A stretch of 64,000 nucleotides of DNA, taken from the sequence record ON184125. The stretch is one strand, 5' to 3'. A program made the position numbers and the translations under genes. Origin of the DNA: Escherichia phage PC3. Within the stretch, counting starts at the first letter, position 1, and each line of letters begins with the position of its first letter. This document shows positions 35,188-43,584 of this stretch, in pieces. The notes under the pieces were generated by a model. The model was given only the letters and a program-made list of their open reading frames with translations, searched no databases and had not been told where the DNA came from.

Positions 35188-37944
35188 TTATGCCCTGATA
35201 ATGGAATTTGAAATAACGTCCAAGTAATCCGAAGAATTTTCAATCGGGTTCAGGGCGCTTGGTTTGTAATTCTCTTTCAAGAACCGGACAACACGATGAC
35301 GTTCTACGGTCATGCGGTTCGCCTTTTTCGCGTTCCGTGTTGGCGTCTTCAGTAAATCAAACGGCACGAATCCATGAATCCTCAGAACTTCCGATGCGTG
35401 ACTGAAGATTTGCAACATGCGTTGTTCAGCGCGGAACACCCTTTCATCCCGCTCATTGGTGTACAGATTCAGATTCAGAGTGCTGATCGTATCCTGGAAA
35501 TGTTTGAAGCGGCGAACCTCATGAAGGGAAACACTACGCTTCGACATCGCCTGATAATGGCGGATAGTTTGTTCGTCCAAGATATCGTCAACATAATCCA
35601 GCATTTGGTTATACCGATTAACCAGCTGATTATAACGCCCGTCTTCCCCTTCACCGAACGCCTGTTTTACCAGATGACACCCGTATTTCAGGCGATTAGA
35701 ACCAAGGTGAAGTCTCTGATGAGATTTCAGCAACCGTATCGCGTTGTGGCGTTCCAGCATCGGCCTGGCATTCTCCAACATAATCTTCAGAATCTCATCA
35801 ATCGGTATGAAGACCTCTGGGAACTTCTTCATCATTGGCACGGATTTACGGCGAGCCAGGAAGATCCTCTTGTGAACGTTCAGCATGTCGCTGATATACA
35901 CTGGCTTGCCATCTTCATCCGCGTGAACGGCATGTTTGTAGAGAGACTCGCGAATACCCCGCGCCGCATCTGTGGTCAACGTTCTGCCCATCACCTGGTG
36001 GATACACTCATAGCCAGACACCTCAATATAGACGATGCGCTCGCCCTTGTTGATGATATCTGAGATCTGGTCGCCCGTCAGTTCTTCTTGCAGGCAGATA
36101 TCGAAGTTTCTGGACGTGAACGGAAACAGGCCAGGGTCTTTGGTGACCGGGGGCGTGACATACGTCAGTTCGTTCATGAACTTAACTTCAGCAGGCTCCA
36201 GCACCGCACTCAGCCAATCGACGAACTTGTCAGCGAAGCACAGATAATCAACCGTCGTTTCTTCTTTGCCAATCCAAGTTTCAAAGAAATCATAGAGAGC
36301 CTGAGAATTCTTGAACGCAGGGTTATCCTTAGATTGGTTGCGCTTGGTGACATAGGATGTGTTCGGCTTGGCCACGATGACTATCGTCCCTGTATCTTTC
36401 AGCTGCTTGATCTTCAGGTTACGAGCACGAACACTATCTTCGATCACCACAGTAACATGCTGGCCGCGATCAATCCAATTCTGGATTTCTGAGATAGTCA
36501 AAGTACTGGACTCACCCCAGTCATAGAAGATCTCCATAGAGAACGGCGACGACAATTCATTGAACGGCGCGGTGTGGTCATAGTCACGGTCGATCTCAAC
36601 AGGCAGCGGGTAACGGTAATATGAATCATGAAAGCGCTTGTCTGCTGGGTATTCCTTTTCAACCATCTTACGGAACCCACTGCCGAACATTTCACTCAGT
36701 TTTACCTTCTCCATATACAGGGCAAGAGGACCGCGCTTACACGCCAGCTCCAGGTCACGCATCTTTTCTGTCAAGATTGCATTGGCGGTGCCCTTAAACT
36801 CCTCAGAGAGCGTCTCACGCGTGAATTCGTCATATGAAAGGTCTTCACGCGACGGTGGTACGTTCAGCGAGCCAAGTTCGAAGAACGTATAGGACGATGG
36901 AAACTTGCTCATGATGGAAGCAGTGTCCGGGTCCAGCTGGTCCAGGTCAATCGGGTACGACACACCACCCATTACAGCGTAGTGGGTGTTCCCCTGGCCT
37001 TTCGGCTGGATGTACGTGTTGTTGACCTTGAATTCATAACTGATATCTTCCCAGCTGAAGCGGTATGAAGCGTTCTCAACAATTGGACGTTGTTCAGGGC
37101 GCATAACACGACCAAGGCGAACCAGTTCATCAGAGAATGCGGAGAAGCGAGCGTTCTTCACCGGGATCTTCACCGTCATGCCGTTGAACTCATCGGTGTC
37201 TTCCGGCTTAGGATCACGGGTTTCAAGATCTTTGGTGATCAGATCAACAGTCGGGATGCGCTTGGCATTCAGGTACATCAGGAAGCGATGGAGTTTACCG
37301 TCCATGCGGCTTTCCACAGTGAACGAATCCGATACCGCAAATGGTGATTTGGAGCCAAGACCGAATGCCCCAATCTGATCATCATCTTCTTCCTTCGTAC
37401 TGTGGAAAAGAGTGGTATACAACCCAGGCGTACGAATGATTTCACCATCTTCGCGACGGAACACTAGACCACCATTATAGAACGCAGGCACGCCGATGAC
37501 CTCAGCTGAGTCAGGGATCTCGTCTTCCTTGACCACCATGTTGCCTTCCAGCAACACTTCATCTTCCTGCGCTGGGATAGGCTCGCCAATGATCTTCTCG
37601 AGTGGCAGACCGATGCCGTAATCACGGATTTCCAGCCATGGTTCAAAGTCGTCAGGCAGATGGACGATGACTGGTGTACCCTTCGGTGCCAGGAACTTAC
37701 TATGGCGCTGTGGAGGGGGAGTGAGAGGCGCGTAGTGGGATGCTACCATACGGTGCATACGATCACGCATGCCATGGGAGTCGATGGCGTTACAGACGGT
37801 TTCGCGCAGGGCTGCAGCCTCTTTGTAACGATACAATGATGAGAACAGAGTCTCAAACATCTTATCGTTCATCTTCACGTTGAACGCCTGCCCCTGAATG
37901 GAAGACGACGAGCGGATAAAGTGCTCGGACTTGCGCATTTTCAT
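35188..37944 (-). CDS. rIIA-like protein with GHKL-type ATPase N-terminus
   Basis: ETVCNAIDSH, DYGIGLP and GAFGLGSKS motifs resembling Bergerat-fold ATPase boxes; 918 aa. Confidence 0.5.
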   Translation of the reverse strand: MKMRKSEHFIRSSSSIQGQAFNVKMNDKMFETLFSSLYRYKEAAALRETVCNAIDSHGMRDRMHRMVASHYAPLTPPPQRHSKFLAPKGTPVIVHLPDDFEPWLEIRDYGIGLPLEKIIGEPIPAQEDEVLLEGNMVVKEDEIPDSAEVIGVPAFYNGGLVFRREDGEIIRTPGLYTTLFHSTKEEDDDQIGAFGLGSKSPFAVSDSFTVESRMDGKLHRFLMYLNAKRIPTVDLITKDLETRDPKPEDTDEFNGMTVKIPVKNARFSAFSDELVRLGRVMRPEQRPIVENASYRFSWEDISYEFKVNNTYIQPKGQGNTHYAVMGGVSYPIDLDQLDPDTASIMSKFPSSYTFFELGSLNVPPSREDLSYDEFTRETLSEEFKGTANAILTEKMRDLELACKRGPLALYMEKVKLSEMFGSGFRKMVEKEYPADKRFHDSYYRYPLPVEIDRDYDHTAPFNELSSPFSMEIFYDWGESSTLTISEIQNWIDRGQHVTVVIEDSVRARNLKIKQLKDTGTIVIVAKPNTSYVTKRNQSKDNPAFKNSQALYDFFETWIGKEETTVDYLCFADKFVDWLSAVLEPAEVKFMNELTYVTPPVTKDPGLFPFTSRNFDICLQEELTGDQISDIINKGERIVYIEVSGYECIHQVMGRTLTTDAARGIRESLYKHAVHADEDGKPVYISDMLNVHKRIFLARRKSVPMMKKFPEVFIPIDEILKIMLENARPMLERHNAIRLLKSHQRLHLGSNRLKYGCHLVKQAFGEGEDGRYNQLVNRYNQMLDYVDDILDEQTIRHYQAMSKRSVSLHEVRRFKHFQDTISTLNLNLYTNERDERVFRAEQRMLQIFSHASEVLRIHGFVPFDLLKTPTRNAKKANRMTVERHRVVRFLKENYKPSALNPIENSSDYLDVISNSIIRA

Positions 37945-38736: not shown

Positions 38737-39273
38737 TCATTTCGTTTCCCCCTTGGCAGCATAGGACAGTGCCTGAACAATCATTACAGCCAGATCGATC
38801 GGCGAGTAGGTGCTGTTCAGATCTTCTCGAACACTCTGCTCGATTTCTTCATCAGACTGGACCACAGGACAGTTCTTTCCCTGGCGACGGCGTTCTGTGT
38901 TGATCATATCACGCAGGAGCAGATTGGTGAAGGAGTACTCGTCAAAGTTCTCCAGGTATTTCTGAATCCCAGTGGATACAGGGGTTGGCTCCGGCTCCTT
39001 TGCCCCAGGATCTTTCAGGGCAGCAACAGTGGCATCAATATCCCACAGAGGGTTCATCAGTAACAGAAGATTAACTGTTTCTCCTGACTCTGAAGTCGGG
39101 TTATTTCCCAGCACCTTGTAAAGATTCTTCAGGGTGCTGTCAAAGGTCAGAACGGTCTGTGCCAGTTCTTCATAAGTTGGTTTGGTAGTCATCAGCGTTT
39201 GCTCCGGCGTTTGTTCTTCATCTTTCTTGGCTTGTCTGTCATGTTCCTGTCCACGAAAAAGGGGATAGAGCAA
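38737..39273 (-). CDS. hypothetical protein
   Basis: 178-aa ORF. Confidence 0.45.
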   Translation of the reverse strand: MLYPLFRGQEHDRQAKKDEEQTPEQTLMTTKPTYEELAQTVLTFDSTLKNLYKVLGNNPTSESGETVNLLLLMNPLWDIDATVAALKDPGAKEPEPTPVSTGIQKYLENFDEYSFTNLLLRDMINTERRRQGKNCPVVQSDEEIEQSVREDLNSTYSPIDLAVMIVQALSYAAKGETK

Positions 39274-39304: not shown

Positions 39305-39718
39305 TTAGTCTTCAGATTCTACTTTGCCGCCTCGTAGATCCCGAACTGGTTTACCGTCCGGTGTCATCACATAAATGGTGTTGATTGTCTCAAACCAAGA
39401 CAGCTGGTCAACACCCTCGGTGTATGGGGTCACCGGAACAGAAGTCTTGACCTCTTTGCCTTTCGTGTTCGGATGTTCAACCACATCCAAGAACGCACAT
39501 TTCCCGCTCGGAAGGATCACACCATCAGTAAACAGCACGATCTTCTTGCGAGGGTTGCTGGCCTCACCCAGGCACACCACCAGATGATGGATCATCTCGG
39601 GGCGGTCAATCAACATGTCGTCTTTGATAATCCCTTGCTTGATAGCAGAGATCACCACTTCATCCAACAGAGCCTGCTGTTGGTCCAGTGTCAGGGATTC
39701 AGTGAGTTTCACGCTCAT
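39305..39718 (-). CDS. hypothetical protein
   Basis: 137-aa ORF. Confidence 0.45.
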   Translation of the reverse strand: MSVKLTESLTLDQQQALLDEVVISAIKQGIIKDDMLIDRPEMIHHLVVCLGEASNPRKKIVLFTDGVILPSGKCAFLDVVEHPNTKGKEVKTSVPVTPYTEGVDQLSWFETINTIYVMTPDGKPVRDLRGGKVESED

Positions 39719-39722
39719 GACA

Positions 39723-40292
39723 TCAGCCTTTGAAGTTAATCGGTTTCTGAATACCAGCGTCGAACGCGGCCTGGGTACGGGTATCGCTCACCACCTGGCA
39801 GGTCTTGTCAAGGTCGATGCGCGGGTAGCCGAACACACCAGCAATCAACGAACCAGGGAACTGAGCCAGCTTGGTTTCGTATATTGCGCAGATATCCAGC
39901 TTCTTGGTCTGGCTGATGCGGAATTCATCACGCCCAGAACTGATCACCACCTGGATCTCTTTGTACAGGCTGGAATCGAACTGAATATTCTGCTCTTGGA
40001 TCCACTGCATGACGGCCTTGGAACCATCAGCGCCATAACGCCCTTCGAACGTGCCTTTGATCACTTCCTTCAGACCGTCTTTATACATGTCAGGAATCTG
40101 CGCCGTCTCTTGAACTTTGAGCGTGTAGTTGCTCAGGTAGTTCTCGGAGTCTTTGTTGAACTTCTTGACCTGCTGCTCAGTGCGGTTGAAGTCGTTGAAG
40201 TAGCTGATGACTGTACCGATGCCGAGAATCACTACACCCAGCAAAGCCAAACCAATTATCCAACCTGTTGCAATACCCTTAGATTGAGACAT
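39723..40292 (-). CDS. LemA-like membrane protein (candidate)
   Basis: N-terminal TM helix followed by a soluble domain with LemA-like composition; weak assignment. Confidence 0.35.
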   Translation of the reverse strand: MSQSKGIATGWIIGLALLGVVILGIGTVISYFNDFNRTEQQVKKFNKDSENYLSNYTLKVQETAQIPDMYKDGLKEVIKGTFEGRYGADGSKAVMQWIQEQNIQFDSSLYKEIQVVISSGRDEFRISQTKKLDICAIYETKLAQFPGSLIAGVFGYPRIDLDKTCQVVSDTRTQAAFDAGIQKPINFKG

Positions 40293-40310
40293 TCTTACTT
40301 CCTCTTTTGA

Positions 40311-41426
40311 TTAAAAATTAAACGGATAACGACGACGGCCACCATTGTACTCCATTCGCTGCAATATGAAAATTGCGGTGAATGGTAAGCAGCCCAGCAG
40401 AACAACAACCACAACTTCCCAGGTCTTGAGTTCCCGCCACTTCAGGTACTCCATTTCCTTCATCTCAACGCGGTTGTAGCCTTTGGTGATGTTAGCGACA
40501 ACATCAGCCATGACACCGACGCCCATGTCGTGGCCTGTGAGAGTCATGCCATTGCGAGAGTGTAGTTCACGGTTATGCATACCATCAGCGAACGAAGTGC
40601 TCTTACCCCAGTTGATCTTCAGATCTTTGCTGATGTCGGTCACGACGATAACGTCGTTCTTTTTACCACCATCCCAAGCATAGACCAAGCCCTGGAAGTA
40701 TTCAACTGGCTGACCGGATGTCACAACCCAGACGATATTGACCTGACGTGAAGCACCTAATGTTTTCAGAGTATTGTTCAGATAGTCGTTCCAGTATGTG
40801 GTCGGTAACGCCAGGCCGGACACATTCAACACACGAGTGACACGATAGTAGTCATAGACCTCAGGGTACTTGGGAATCTTGTCTTTGAAGCGTTCAGCAA
40901 ACTGCTGGTCTGAGCGGGAGAACAGAGAGTCTTTGTTACCCAGTACATAGTTCATGTAGGAATGCTCACGGGCTGCGGGTTCGCCGATCTGAACCTGCGC
41001 CCAGCGCGGGGGCTGACCAAGACCGCGACGATCAATGCGGTCAATCGTCAGATTACCGACAGTCGTCAACACATCCCAGTCCACGTCATATGAATGCTCA
41101 TAACATGTACTGCAATGACGCGTTTTTGTACAAGATCGGTTATTTCCTGAACCTGTACAAGATGTGGTGTAGTAGCAGTTGCATTCATATGAATGCTCAC
41201 AGCTCACCTTATTCCGCTCCTTTGCAGTGACGTACCCGTTCAGGATCTCAACATCCCCTGAACTGCCAAGGGAGAACGCAGCATAAGCCCCCGCCTGAAT
41301 CAGACAGGATAGCACCACTACAATCGCGGTCGCTATCAGAGTCTCTTTCGGCTCATGGGTCTTGCGGTGGTAGATCACAAACAAGATAGCCAGTACCAAT
41401 GGCACACCAAACAGGAGGTAGATCAT
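40311..41426 (-). CDS. membrane protein with Cys-rich extracytoplasmic domain
   Basis: N- and C-terminal TM helices; CEHSYECNCYYTTSCTG...CSTC cluster. Confidence 0.45.
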   Translation of the reverse strand: MIYLLFGVPLVLAILFVIYHRKTHEPKETLIATAIVVVLSCLIQAGAYAAFSLGSSGDVEILNGYVTAKERNKVSCEHSYECNCYYTTSCTGSGNNRSCTKTRHCSTCYEHSYDVDWDVLTTVGNLTIDRIDRRGLGQPPRWAQVQIGEPAAREHSYMNYVLGNKDSLFSRSDQQFAERFKDKIPKYPEVYDYYRVTRVLNVSGLALPTTYWNDYLNNTLKTLGASRQVNIVWVVTSGQPVEYFQGLVYAWDGGKKNDVIVVTDISKDLKINWGKSTSFADGMHNRELHSRNGMTLTGHDMGVGVMADVVANITKGYNRVEMKEMEYLKWRELKTWEVVVVVLLGCLPFTAIFILQRMEYNGGRRRYPFNF

Positions 41427-41662
41427 TTGGATTCACCGACGAGCTGCGCCTTGGTCATCCCAAGGAGTTGATCTTTATGCTCAGGATTGGCACCGTTCTT
41501 TAACAACAAATCCCAACGCTCTTCATGGTACTGTGGGTCCAGTGCTTCATCAAATGTGATGTGGTGGCGGAACATAATAGTTGCCACTGAATGGACACAG
41601 TGAGCGATTGCGCGCTTCATTGTTCGAGTATTCTTGTTCATCTTGTACACCCTCCGACACAA
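41423..41662 (-). CDS. hypothetical protein
   Basis: 79-aa ORF. Confidence 0.35.
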   Translation of the reverse strand: MCRRVYKMNKNTRTMKRAIAHCVHSVATIMFRHHITFDEALDPQYHEERWDLLLKNGANPEHKDQLLGMTKAQLVGESK

Positions 41663-42357: not shown

Positions 42358-43584
42358 TCAGCGTTTCAAGAGTGTCATGAGGTTGACGCTGCTGGACTTC
42401 GGTTTATCAATCTTCGGTTTACCCAATTCTCGATACACCTGGTCAGGCTCCCAGCGCGTACCCTTTTGCAGGTGCCAGATATGCAGAGGAACACCAGTCT
42501 CAAAGAACACAGGCATCTTCCACTTCTGGACGCCTGGAACGTGCCCTGCAGGAGCCTTTTCGCACAACAGGGTATCTGGCAGCCAGAGCGAACGGGCTTC
42601 CCAGAGCGCTGCGCAGGAGTATTCAGGCCAGACGCGTTCCATGTAGTCTATCTCATCCCAGGTACGCTCTGCGTCCCACCCGATGTAACGAGTATTCTTC
42701 AGTCGGAAGAATTTCTTCAGCCAACAAGCACCGGAGGTTTCAAAGTTCAGGCGGTTGATGAACGTCAGGTGCCCGAACTCAGCCACACAATCCTGGAACG
42801 CCTGCTCAAGGTCGGCCTCAAGGATGTCACACTCTTCATCCGTGATAGGGCAACTGTTGATCTTTTTCTTCCCGTGTTTAGTCACCCAATCGTCACGGTT
42901 GGACAAGAACGCCGCGCCATTACGGTTGGACTCGCTTCCATCACGATCACGCAACATGAAGCCAGGGACGTCAATGGTGTATTCGTTCCCGAAGACCATG
43001 TTCAGGGCTTCCAGGAAGTTCCAGGCGCTCAGGCGACCGAAGTATTTCCAGGACATCGCCGTGTCCCACAGCTGGGTGAATTGTTCTGTCTTATCGATGC
43101 ACACCAACATCCCACGGAAAGCGTCATATTGAGTACGGCCAGCCAGCCAGTCAATATAGGACTGAACACACGGAATCATCTTGGACTTGCGGTAGCGACA
43201 GTCGGTATCGAATCGCATGCGATCAAAGTTCAGATTATACCAATCAGAGAAGCGCTGCATCTCTTCCTTAGACTGAGGCGGCACAGGGAACTCACTGTAG
43301 ATCGTCCACGGCCCGACGGCGTTATAGCAACAACCCCACAGGAATGCCATCCAGATCTTGCGCTCGACTTTCTGTTCGAGGCTGATGCCTTCAGTGACTT
43401 CGATCGCATAGTCCATCAGACGCATCTGCTGGTTGTGCTCTTCTGTGTAGGACAGCGCCTCCACCCAAGCCTTGAGCAAGTACATGCGATTCTCAGGCTT
43501 GCGATAATCAACAGCCAGGTCAATCGGGTACTTCCATTCAGCCGGAGGCGTATAGCCCGTCGGCATTTTAGATAAATGATGCAT
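42358..43584 (-). CDS. hypothetical protein (408 aa)
   Basis: Long ORF with no motif recognisable by eye; candidate accessory enzyme. Confidence 0.55.
   Translation of the reverse strand: MHHLSKMPTGYTPPAEWKYPIDLAVDYRKPENRMYLLKAWVEALSYTEEHNQQMRLMDYAIEVTEGISLEQKVERKIWMAFLWGCCYNAVGPWTIYSEFPVPPQSKEEMQRFSDWYNLNFDRMRFDTDCRYRKSKMIPCVQSYIDWLAGRTQYDAFRGMLVCIDKTEQFTQLWDTAMSWKYFGRLSAWNFLEALNMVFGNEYTIDVPGFMLRDRDGSESNRNGAAFLSNRDDWVTKHGKKKINSCPITDEECDILEADLEQAFQDCVAEFGHLTFINRLNFETSGACWLKKFFRLKNTRYIGWDAERTWDEIDYMERVWPEYSCAALWEARSLWLPDTLLCEKAPAGHVPGVQKWKMPVFFETGVPLHIWHLQKGTRWEPDQVYRELGKPKIDKPKSSSVNLMTLLKR

Follow-up and report, generated by a model that had tools for sequence, protein, structure and literature searches.

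The stretch of DNA considered here (64,000 nucleotides of Escherichia phage PC3, sequence record ON184125; hereafter the window) is 100% identical to Escherichia phage PH4 (ON184126.1; Ackermannviridae, Aglimvirinae) and carries, on its minus strand, a pair of adjacent genes encoding predicted membrane proteins. The first gene of the pair, PH4_000166, encodes a 371-amino acid (aa) protein (gp166) with a domain resembling those of the TPM family (PF04536), and the second, PH4_000165, encodes a 189-aa protein (gp165) related to bacterial LemA (PF04011); both are labelled ‘hypothetical protein’ in the GenBank record of PH4. The two open reading frames (ORFs), each present as a single copy in the window, lie exactly where they had been placed by an earlier reading of the nucleotide sequence (the original prediction), which described them as a LemA-like protein paired with a Cys-rich membrane protein. 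Judged from their sequences, both are clearly real, conserved genes and not chance ORFs, because they match the families PHROG 1383 (gp165) and PHROG 2087 (gp166), with the E-values shown in Table 1, and have hundreds of homologs. At its start, the 371-aa gene overlaps with the end of a small upstream gene (41423–41662). A 231-aa ORF on the opposite strand (39615–40310, +) lies antisense to the entire LemA-like gene; it is unannotated in the related records inspected and is presumably a chance ORF.

Table 1. Features of the gene pair, with positions in the window (aa, amino acids; TM, transmembrane; HMM, hidden Markov model; pLDDT, predicted local distance difference test).
Feature	Position	Strand	Basis
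TPM-like partner gene, 371-aa three-TM membrane protein, first in cassette	40311–41426	-	ORF; PHROG 2087, E 2e-163; AlphaFold2 pLDDT 92
N-terminal TM hairpin, aa 1–54 (TM1 aa 1–22, basic loop HRKTHEPKE, TM2 aa 27–54)	41265–41426	-	hydropathy; model helices 2–20 and 26–56
Cys/His-rich beta domain, aa 55–200, predicted periplasmic, best conserved part	40827–41264	-	model beta strands 57–158; conservation
Cys cluster, aa 76–111, C76-x-H78-x3-C82-x-C84...C90...C99...C105-x2-C108-x2-H111	41094–41201	-	conservation and covariation in 68 relatives
TPM-like alpha/beta domain, aa 201–330, motif LGxxKQVNIxVV...AWxGGKKNDV	40437–40826	-	Foldseek; BFVD; Pfam in relatives; hhalign
C-terminal TM (aa 333–358) and Arg-rich tail, predicted cytoplasmic, aa 331–371	40314–40436	-	hydropathy, charge
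18-nt intergenic spacer with Shine-Dalgarno sequence (AAGAGGAAG; GAGGA) for the LemA-like gene	40293–40310	-	direct sequence reading
Divergent LemA gene, 189 aa, second in cassette	39723–40292	-	ORF; PHROG 1383, E 1e-85; hhalign 96.2%; canonical-LemA HMM
Single N-terminal TM anchor, aa 4–35 (N-in, C-out predicted)	40188–40283	-	hydropathy; positive-inside count
LemA-like helical bundle, aa 36–163, predicted periplasmic; signature GRYGxDGSKAVMQWIQEQN; covarying C135/C165 pair	39804–40187	-	AlphaFold2 pLDDT 86; 2etd and LemA profile alignments

Relationship of gp165 and gp166 to LemA and TPM proteins

Profile comparisons confirm the LemA-like character that the original prediction had ascribed to the 189-aa protein, and identify it as a remote, divergent homolog of LemA. 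An alignment of 55 relatives of the phage protein was compared with an alignment of 38 canonical LemA sequences, all of which belong to PF04011 and are 186–195 aa long. The two families were aligned by hhalign with a probability of 96.2% (E 2.6e-9) over 147 columns, among them those of the TM helix and of the C-terminal FP...G(F/Y) motif. The top match of the family profile in the PDB was the solved LemA structure 2etd (E 3.9e-4), in an alignment over nearly the full length (positions 33–161), and in the reciprocal search of all ORFs of the window with a canonical-LemA HMM the 189-aa ORF was the sole match (E 1.4e-5). LemA was also the most frequent weak Pfam match among the relatives (6 of the 55, best E 0.0016). 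The architecture is likewise that of LemA: about 190 aa, with a single N-terminal TM segment, formed by the hydrophobic stretch at aa 4–35, which bears out the proposed N-terminal anchoring, and a helical bundle (the AlphaFold model is all-helical, with a pLDDT of 86). The label ‘LemA’ is already found in one GenBank record (RPN242) and one UniRef entry, so that automated annotation has now and then recognised the relationship.

The similarity to TPM proteins proposed for the 371-aa protein was found as well. Its AlphaFold2 model comprises a beta-rich domain (about aa 57–160) and an alpha/beta domain (about aa 200–330), and the only high-probability Foldseek matches of this model were TPM domains, namely those of LMTP1 (9h70; E 2e-3, probability 0.99), a PF04536 member (bioRxiv 10.1101/2024.10.28.620569), and of the TPM structure 2kpt (probability 0.94). 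BFVD holds a full-length structural homolog named ‘TPM domain-containing protein’ (E 5e-22, TM 0.62/0.71 in the structural comparison), and TPM_phosphatase was by far the most frequent weak Pfam match among the relatives of the protein, being found in 15 of the 68 (best E 1.8e-4). The model and these matches support the presence of a domain with the TPM alpha/beta fold. A hydropathy scan identified three hydrophobic segments (aa 1–22, 27–54 and 333–358); the original prediction was therefore right in placing TM helices at both ends of the protein and a Cys-rich loop between them (seven Cys at aa 76–108), and has to be amended at the N-terminus, where there are two TM segments rather than one.

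The N-terminal hairpin is the least conserved stretch of the 371-aa protein, whereas the Cys/His-rich beta domain is its best conserved part, with a mean majority-residue frequency of 0.66 over aa 55–130. No relative of this domain was detectable outside its own family, either by a profile search of the PDB or by Foldseek. Seven Cys fall within 33 residues (aa 76–108), and 54 of the 68 relatives have kept all of them. C84 and C105 have been lost jointly in eight relatives, and C90 and C99 jointly in three; this pattern of paired loss implies that these residues form two disulfides. C76, H78, C82, C108 and H111 are each retained in 65–68 of the 68 relatives and could constitute a metal site. 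In the LemA-like family, C135 and C165 are both present in 30 relatives and both absent from 25, and no relative has just one of them.

The soluble domains of both proteins are predicted to be periplasmic, because of positive-inside counts, the covariation of C135 and C165, the Cys-rich ectodomain of the partner, with its covarying Cys pairs, and the basic loop and tail. The counts favoured N-in/C-out both for the phage LemA-like family (29 sequences versus 9) and for canonical LemA (25 versus 5).

Pairs of this type are indeed known in bacteria, as had been stated in the original prediction. In Thermotoga and Neobacillus, a LemA gene (PF04011) is followed by a gene for a membrane protein of the TPM_phosphatase family (PF04536), the stop codon of the first overlapping the start codon of the second, and the TPM partners, of 238–255 aa, consist of an N-terminal anchor, the TPM domain, a TM segment at the C-terminus and a tail rich in Gly and Arg. 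A linkage of lemA to htpX in streptococci was searched for as well and could not be substantiated. The LemA-like and TPM-like genes of the window are co-directional and 18 nt apart. gp165 resembles bacterial LemA, represented by 2etd (Thermotoga TM0961), in its length (189 versus 186–195 aa), in its N-terminal TM and all-helical domain, in adjoining a TPM-type gene, and in the C-terminal ‘FPxxxxAxxxG(F/Y)’ motif. It differs from bacterial LemA in having only about 19% identity, in the position of its gene (downstream of the TPM gene rather than upstream, as in canonical pairs), in the signature GRYGxDGSKAVMQWIQEQN, which belongs to the phage family, and in the covarying Cys pair found in half of that family. 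Of the LemA motifs QLQRRxDLIPNLV, ENYP, TENRI and FP...FGF, it has retained the C-terminal FP...G(F/Y) alone in the hhalign alignment, the others being replaced. The ectodomain of gp166 lies, as in TPM proteins (PF04536: TLP18.3/Psb32/MOLO-1; YgcG-type), between an N-terminal anchor and a C-terminal TM with a basic tail, but the protein has an extra N-terminal TM hairpin and an extra Cys/His-rich beta domain of about 145 aa, both of which are lacking in the canonical partners. The phage cassette thus differs from the cellular pair in its reversed gene order, with the TPM-like gene first, and in these two additions.

Several other matches were considered and set aside. Sub-threshold matches to Spore_III_AF, DUF948 and DUF2232, obtained in Pfam and NCBIfam scans of both proteins, are driven by TM segments and were treated as noise. 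LolA was the only match of the 371-aa family in the profile search of the PDB, in which no sequence match was significant, and was rejected as due to chance. A PADLOC match between aa 9–112 of the 189-aa protein and the C-terminal part of the LeoBC defence model (E 2.4e-4, 18 bits) was also considered to be noise, probably due to the TM helix and coiled region; PADLOC gave no match for the 371-aa protein, and no significant defence or exclusion system in either protein.

Distribution and genomic context of the cassette

The original prediction considered such a pair to be unexpected in a lytic phage, and this view is contradicted by its distribution. In a tblastn search of 50,697 phage records, the two proteins were found in 485 and 497 records, or about 1% of the total. 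The counts per genus were almost identical for the two proteins: Salmonella (168/166), Escherichia (62/62), Klebsiella (55/54), Erwinia (29/29), Aeromonas (26/25), Acinetobacter (23/23), Serratia (22/22), Vibrio (22/22) and Dickeya (19/19). The carriers include Ackermannviridae, T4-like Aeromonas phages, Vibrio phage ICP1, T5-like Vibrio phages and Acinetobacter Saclayvirus, together with jumbo phages (GAP32-like phages, Erwinia Agricanvirus, XacN1 and Atu_ph07). Their named hosts are all diderm, as a periplasmic location of the two proteins would require, with the exception of one ‘Enterococcus phage’ record that is taken to be mis-attributed. An exhaustive profile search for the TPM-like family yielded 2,148 representative clusters at 50% identity, 1,754 of them at E<=1e-10, and nearly all of these proteins were 344–390 aa long. 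The 185,579 species-representative genomes searched contained 38 loci only, mostly on contigs of metagenome-assembled genomes (MAGs), with both genes adjacent in 30 of the 38 and two more loci cut by contig ends. Phages appear to be the main habitat of the pair.

The two genes were adjacent in every distant lineage inspected. HMM searches of ICP1, Aeh1, Acinetobacter Rocket and Erwinia Simmy50 found the TPM-like gene followed by the LemA-like gene on the same strand in each phage, and the flanking genes are unrelated between these lineages; the unit is therefore a two-gene cassette. A gene of about 200 aa directly upstream in ICP1, Rocket and Simmy50 was considered as a conserved third member and rejected, the three genes being unrelated to each other and to the neighbours in PH4. 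On one metagenomic contig (L051 1012–2673; JGI 3300014198 contig Ga0181608_113487), the two proteins are fused head to tail in a continuous ORF of 553 aa (P0371), with four TM segments arranged so that the two ectodomains lie on one side of the membrane; this fusion is known from one contig only and may be a sequencing artefact. It is well supported that the two genes travel together, as one cassette, among large virulent phages of Gram-negative bacteria that are not related to each other.

In the lineages inspected, the cassette lies in early or replication regions and never in a structural or lysis module. In Acinetobacter phages it is located between the genes for ribonucleotide reductase and thymidylate synthase, with dihydrofolate reductase also among the nucleotide-metabolism genes there, and in Aeh1 and ICP1 it is found among early-type genes, which in Aeh1 include a nicotinamide mononucleotide (NMN) adenylyltransferase/NUDIX-like gene. 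The leftward block of PH4 has the order DNA polymerase, deoxyribonucleotidase, amino acid:DNA transferase, small genes, cassette, rIIA, rIIB and topoisomerase II.

Some of these neighbours are poorly annotated. A 408-aa protein (42358–43584, -) labelled ‘hypothetical protein’ in PH4, and thymine pyrophosphorylase in one related record, matches the Pfam family ADDT (amino acid:DNA transferase; E 7e-60), which would fit the thymidine hypermodification known for ViI-like phages. A 918-aa protein (35188–37944, -), also a ‘hypothetical protein’ in the PH4 record, is RIIA (PHROG 3661, E 0), with RIIB downstream. Two genes downstream of the cassette, a 178-aa protein (38737–39273, -) has the conserved Pfam domain DUF7181 (E 7e-64).

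Among the loci from cellular genomes, six carry a TPM-like/Cys-rich homolog amid cellular-looking neighbours, with no LemA-like gene nearby; these solitary copies, which occur on high-GC Myxococcota-like contigs and on one low-GC contig labelled as a ‘Rickettsia typhi’ MAG, may be cellular members of the family. On a contig of 667 kb, the pair itself is surrounded by genes of cellular type. Fifteen cassette loci have been binned to MAGs of Patescibacteria, or candidate phyla radiation (CPR), bacteria (Saccharibacteria, Paceibacterota, Uhrbacteria, Sungiibacteriota, SR1 and others), and may be mis-binned phage contigs or belong to CPR phages. The LemA-like gene in ‘Enterococcus phage Efm 3-10’ (OR844942.1) is of the Ackermannviridae type (92.6% identity), and the host of this phage has probably been mis-attributed. 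Orthologs of the LemA-like protein are probably misannotated as ‘major capsid protein’ in Pectobacterium phage DU_PP_V and as ‘cell puncturing device and tail lysozyme’ in Acinetobacter phage CP14 (OP585105.1).

Possible roles in the infected cell

The explanation that we favour, with about an even chance of being correct, is that the two genes are a phage-adapted, highly diverged LemA–TPM pair, the products of which assemble in the inner membrane as a complex that faces the periplasm and serves to maintain or remodel the envelope of the host. As far as structure and evolution are concerned, this explanation is well supported, and the physiological role is its least certain step. The complex of gp165 and gp166 would lie at the outer face of the inner membrane of the host, with soluble domains in the periplasm stabilised by disulfides; the genomic context of the cassette suggests that it would be expressed in the early or middle phase of infection; and the complex, by analogy with cellular LemA–TPM modules, may maintain or remodel the inner membrane and the envelope of the host cell through a long infection cycle. 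The deep conservation of the cassette, with invariant residues across very different phage families, points to a conserved host-side target rather than a phage-specific one.

What has been published on the cellular relatives is consistent with a link to the membrane. TPM domains have been proposed to be chaperone-like assembly factors for membrane complexes, coupled to PspA (PMC11237479; bioRxiv 10.1101/2025.01.14.632903), and the LemA and TPM genes of Flavobacterium are co-induced under secretion or membrane stress (PMC13236525). In Psp/PspA systems, including YdjF–YdjH (PspA–TPM) of Bacillus subtilis, a TPM membrane protein is tied to membrane stress (PMC11237479). Unlike these systems, the cassette has no PspA homolog in it or beside it, and the domains of gp165 and gp166 are predicted to be periplasmic, whereas PspA is located on the cytoplasmic face. 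Acinetobacter phage Acibel004 (KJ473422.1) carries both the cassette and a PspA/IM30 protein (ORF066), which co-purified with its particles, and some phages may thus combine several membrane-maintenance modules.

A number of observations weigh against this explanation. The 189-aa protein does not match Pfam LemA (PF04011) even at E<=1, and the 371-aa protein does not match TPM_phosphatase (PF04536), the gathering score being reached in neither case. In a Foldseek search of the PDB with the model of the 189-aa protein, 2etd ranked second without significance (E 0.45, probability 0.54, TM 0.33/0.40 in the structural comparison), alongside syntaxin-type bundles; the LemA homology claim therefore rests on sequence profiles. 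The hhalign comparison of the 371-aa family with LemA-linked TPM proteins was weak (E 0.004, probability 8%, 59 columns; aa 216–276, on the TPM core motif), the template consisting of four sequences. The best conserved part of the phage protein, the Cys/His beta domain, has no counterpart in the cellular TPM partners, and the protein may act otherwise than they do. The case for a complex is made only from gene linkage and from one fusion on a single metagenomic contig, and the cellular analogy gives little mechanism, because the cellular pair has no established function. A scan for promoters and terminators around the pair revealed no convincing minus-strand signals, so the proposed timing of expression follows from genomic context only. 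Searches of the literature did not turn up experiments with proteins of either phage family.

A wider proposal, which is tentative and less probable than not, is that the cassette is a hitherto unrecognised ‘envelope management’ module, near-core in large virulent phages that infect diderm bacteria. A co-opted LemA–TPM pair and a new, possibly metal-binding Cys/His beta domain would make up a periplasm-facing complex of the inner membrane that acts on a conserved component of the host envelope, and would keep the infected cell intact and energised, or control access to it.

The original prediction suggested superinfection exclusion, envelope stress or lysis control as possible functions. From the genomic context and the pattern of conservation, we infer that an envelope-related role is to be preferred to the other two. 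Superinfection exclusion, in which an early, periplasm-facing complex would block DNA injection or cell-wall penetration by secondary phages, is unlikely. T4 Imm and Sp are superinfection-exclusion proteins that are produced early and are located in the inner membrane, facing the periplasm, and their profile is resembled by that of gp165 and gp166, which are predicted to be inner-membrane, periplasm-facing proteins and are encoded in early-type regions; the LemA-like protein was also abundant enough in a preparation of Acibel004 to give 54.6% coverage in mass spectrometry. Known exclusion proteins are small, fast-evolving and lineage-specific, whereas the cassette is conserved, with invariant residues, in unrelated phage families with hosts ranging from Vibrio to Acinetobacter and Agrobacterium. 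This deep conservation across unrelated phages and hosts argues against a typical fast-evolving exclusion factor, and against a holin or antiholin. Moreover, the cassette descends from a housekeeping-type cellular module, with some apparently cellular copies, and neither protein is similar to any superinfection-exclusion family in PHROGs or Pfam. The likeness to Imm and Sp, and to holin T and antiholin RI of T4, is one of general layout (phage proteins of the inner membrane that have periplasmic domains and genes outside the structural modules); the cassette differs from these systems in its far wider conservation and cellular ancestry, and has no sequence or profile similarity to them.

An enzymatic role is distinctly improbable. 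In this hypothesis, the TPM-like domain, possibly with the help of a metal coordinated by the Cys/His cluster, would be a periplasmic phosphohydrolase or nutrient scavenger that hydrolyses nucleotides or phosphoesters to feed phage DNA synthesis. The neighbours of the cassette recurrently belong to nucleotide metabolism (ribonucleotide reductase, thymidylate synthase and dihydrofolate reductase in one lineage, deoxyribonucleotidase, DNA polymerase and ADDT in another, the NMN adenylyltransferase/NUDIX-like gene in a third), but this linkage may merely mirror placement in early regions. The nearly invariant C76, H78, C82, C108 and H111 could hold the metal. Phosphatase or ATPase/ADPase activity has been reported for some TPM proteins, according to work cited in PMC11237479, but an enzymatic role of these domains is disputed and recent analyses deem it unlikely (PMC11237479; bioRxiv 10.1101/2025.01.14.632903). 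A phosphohydrolase would also leave the obligatory LemA partner with no role.

It is very unlikely that the pair controls the timing of lysis, as a holin/antiholin-type system or as a lysis-inhibition sensor in the periplasm. A type II membrane protein whose periplasmic domain is stabilised by disulfides recalls, in its layout, the T4 membrane proteins T (holin) and RI (antiholin), and rIIA and rIIB lie near the cassette in PH4, but no lysis genes are found beside it in any lineage inspected. Weak phage-holin Pfam matches were obtained for 2 of the 68 relatives of gp166; they are few and probably driven by TM segments. To our knowledge, holins do not usually share homology with housekeeping membrane modules, and the holin and antiholin of ICP1 are presumably other genes than those of the cassette. 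Nor does the pair have the features of spanins: the 371-aa protein lacks a lipobox, its first Cys (aa 41) lies within TM2, and no lysis genes adjoin the two genes.

Finally, a role of the LemA-like protein in the virion or its assembly, as labelled in PHROG 1383 and several records, is highly improbable and was rejected as unproven: the ortholog ORF020 of Acibel004 was detected in purified particles (10 unique peptides, 54.6% coverage) and Erwinia phage records give ‘putative structural protein’, but the Acibel004 preparation also contained RNA ligase, nicotinate phosphoribosyltransferase (NAPRTase) and PspA/IM30, which points to carry-over of abundant non-structural or membrane proteins, and lacked the TPM-like partner (PMC4128745), neither gp96 nor gp97 is listed for CsCl-purified Sajous1 (Kuttervirus, Ackermannviridae; ortholog about 93% identical) (PMC10892097), the genes are never found in structural modules, and a membrane-anchored protein with disulfides in the periplasm would hardly be expected in the particle of a tailed phage. 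The label ‘virion structural protein’ in PHROG goes back to particle preparations that were analysed by mass spectrometry; the LemA-like protein is abundant, and its assignment to the virion derives from co-purification alone.

Significance for phages and for LemA–TPM systems

Literature searches on LemA and TPM proteins in phages returned only author-name matches or bacterial transcriptome lists, and the phage pair is undescribed in the literature searched. What is new here is a LemA–TPM pair with a reversed gene order, an extra TM hairpin and a conserved Cys/His domain, found mainly in phages. For phage annotation, the analysis corrects misleading labels (‘virion structural protein’, ‘major capsid protein’ and ‘tail lysozyme’); if the role of the pair is ordinary membrane upkeep, the practical impact would be modest and would consist of a better annotation of about 1,000 phage genes. 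The cassette marks a conserved interface between phage and host at the inner membrane. LemA and proteins with a TPM domain abound in bacteria, where their genes usually occur together, and no function has been established for them. A route to the function of LemA–TPM systems is offered by tractable phages, such as ICP1 and the Ackermannviridae, and, if the wider proposal made above is true, the phage cassette could provide the first functional handle on this widespread bacterial system.

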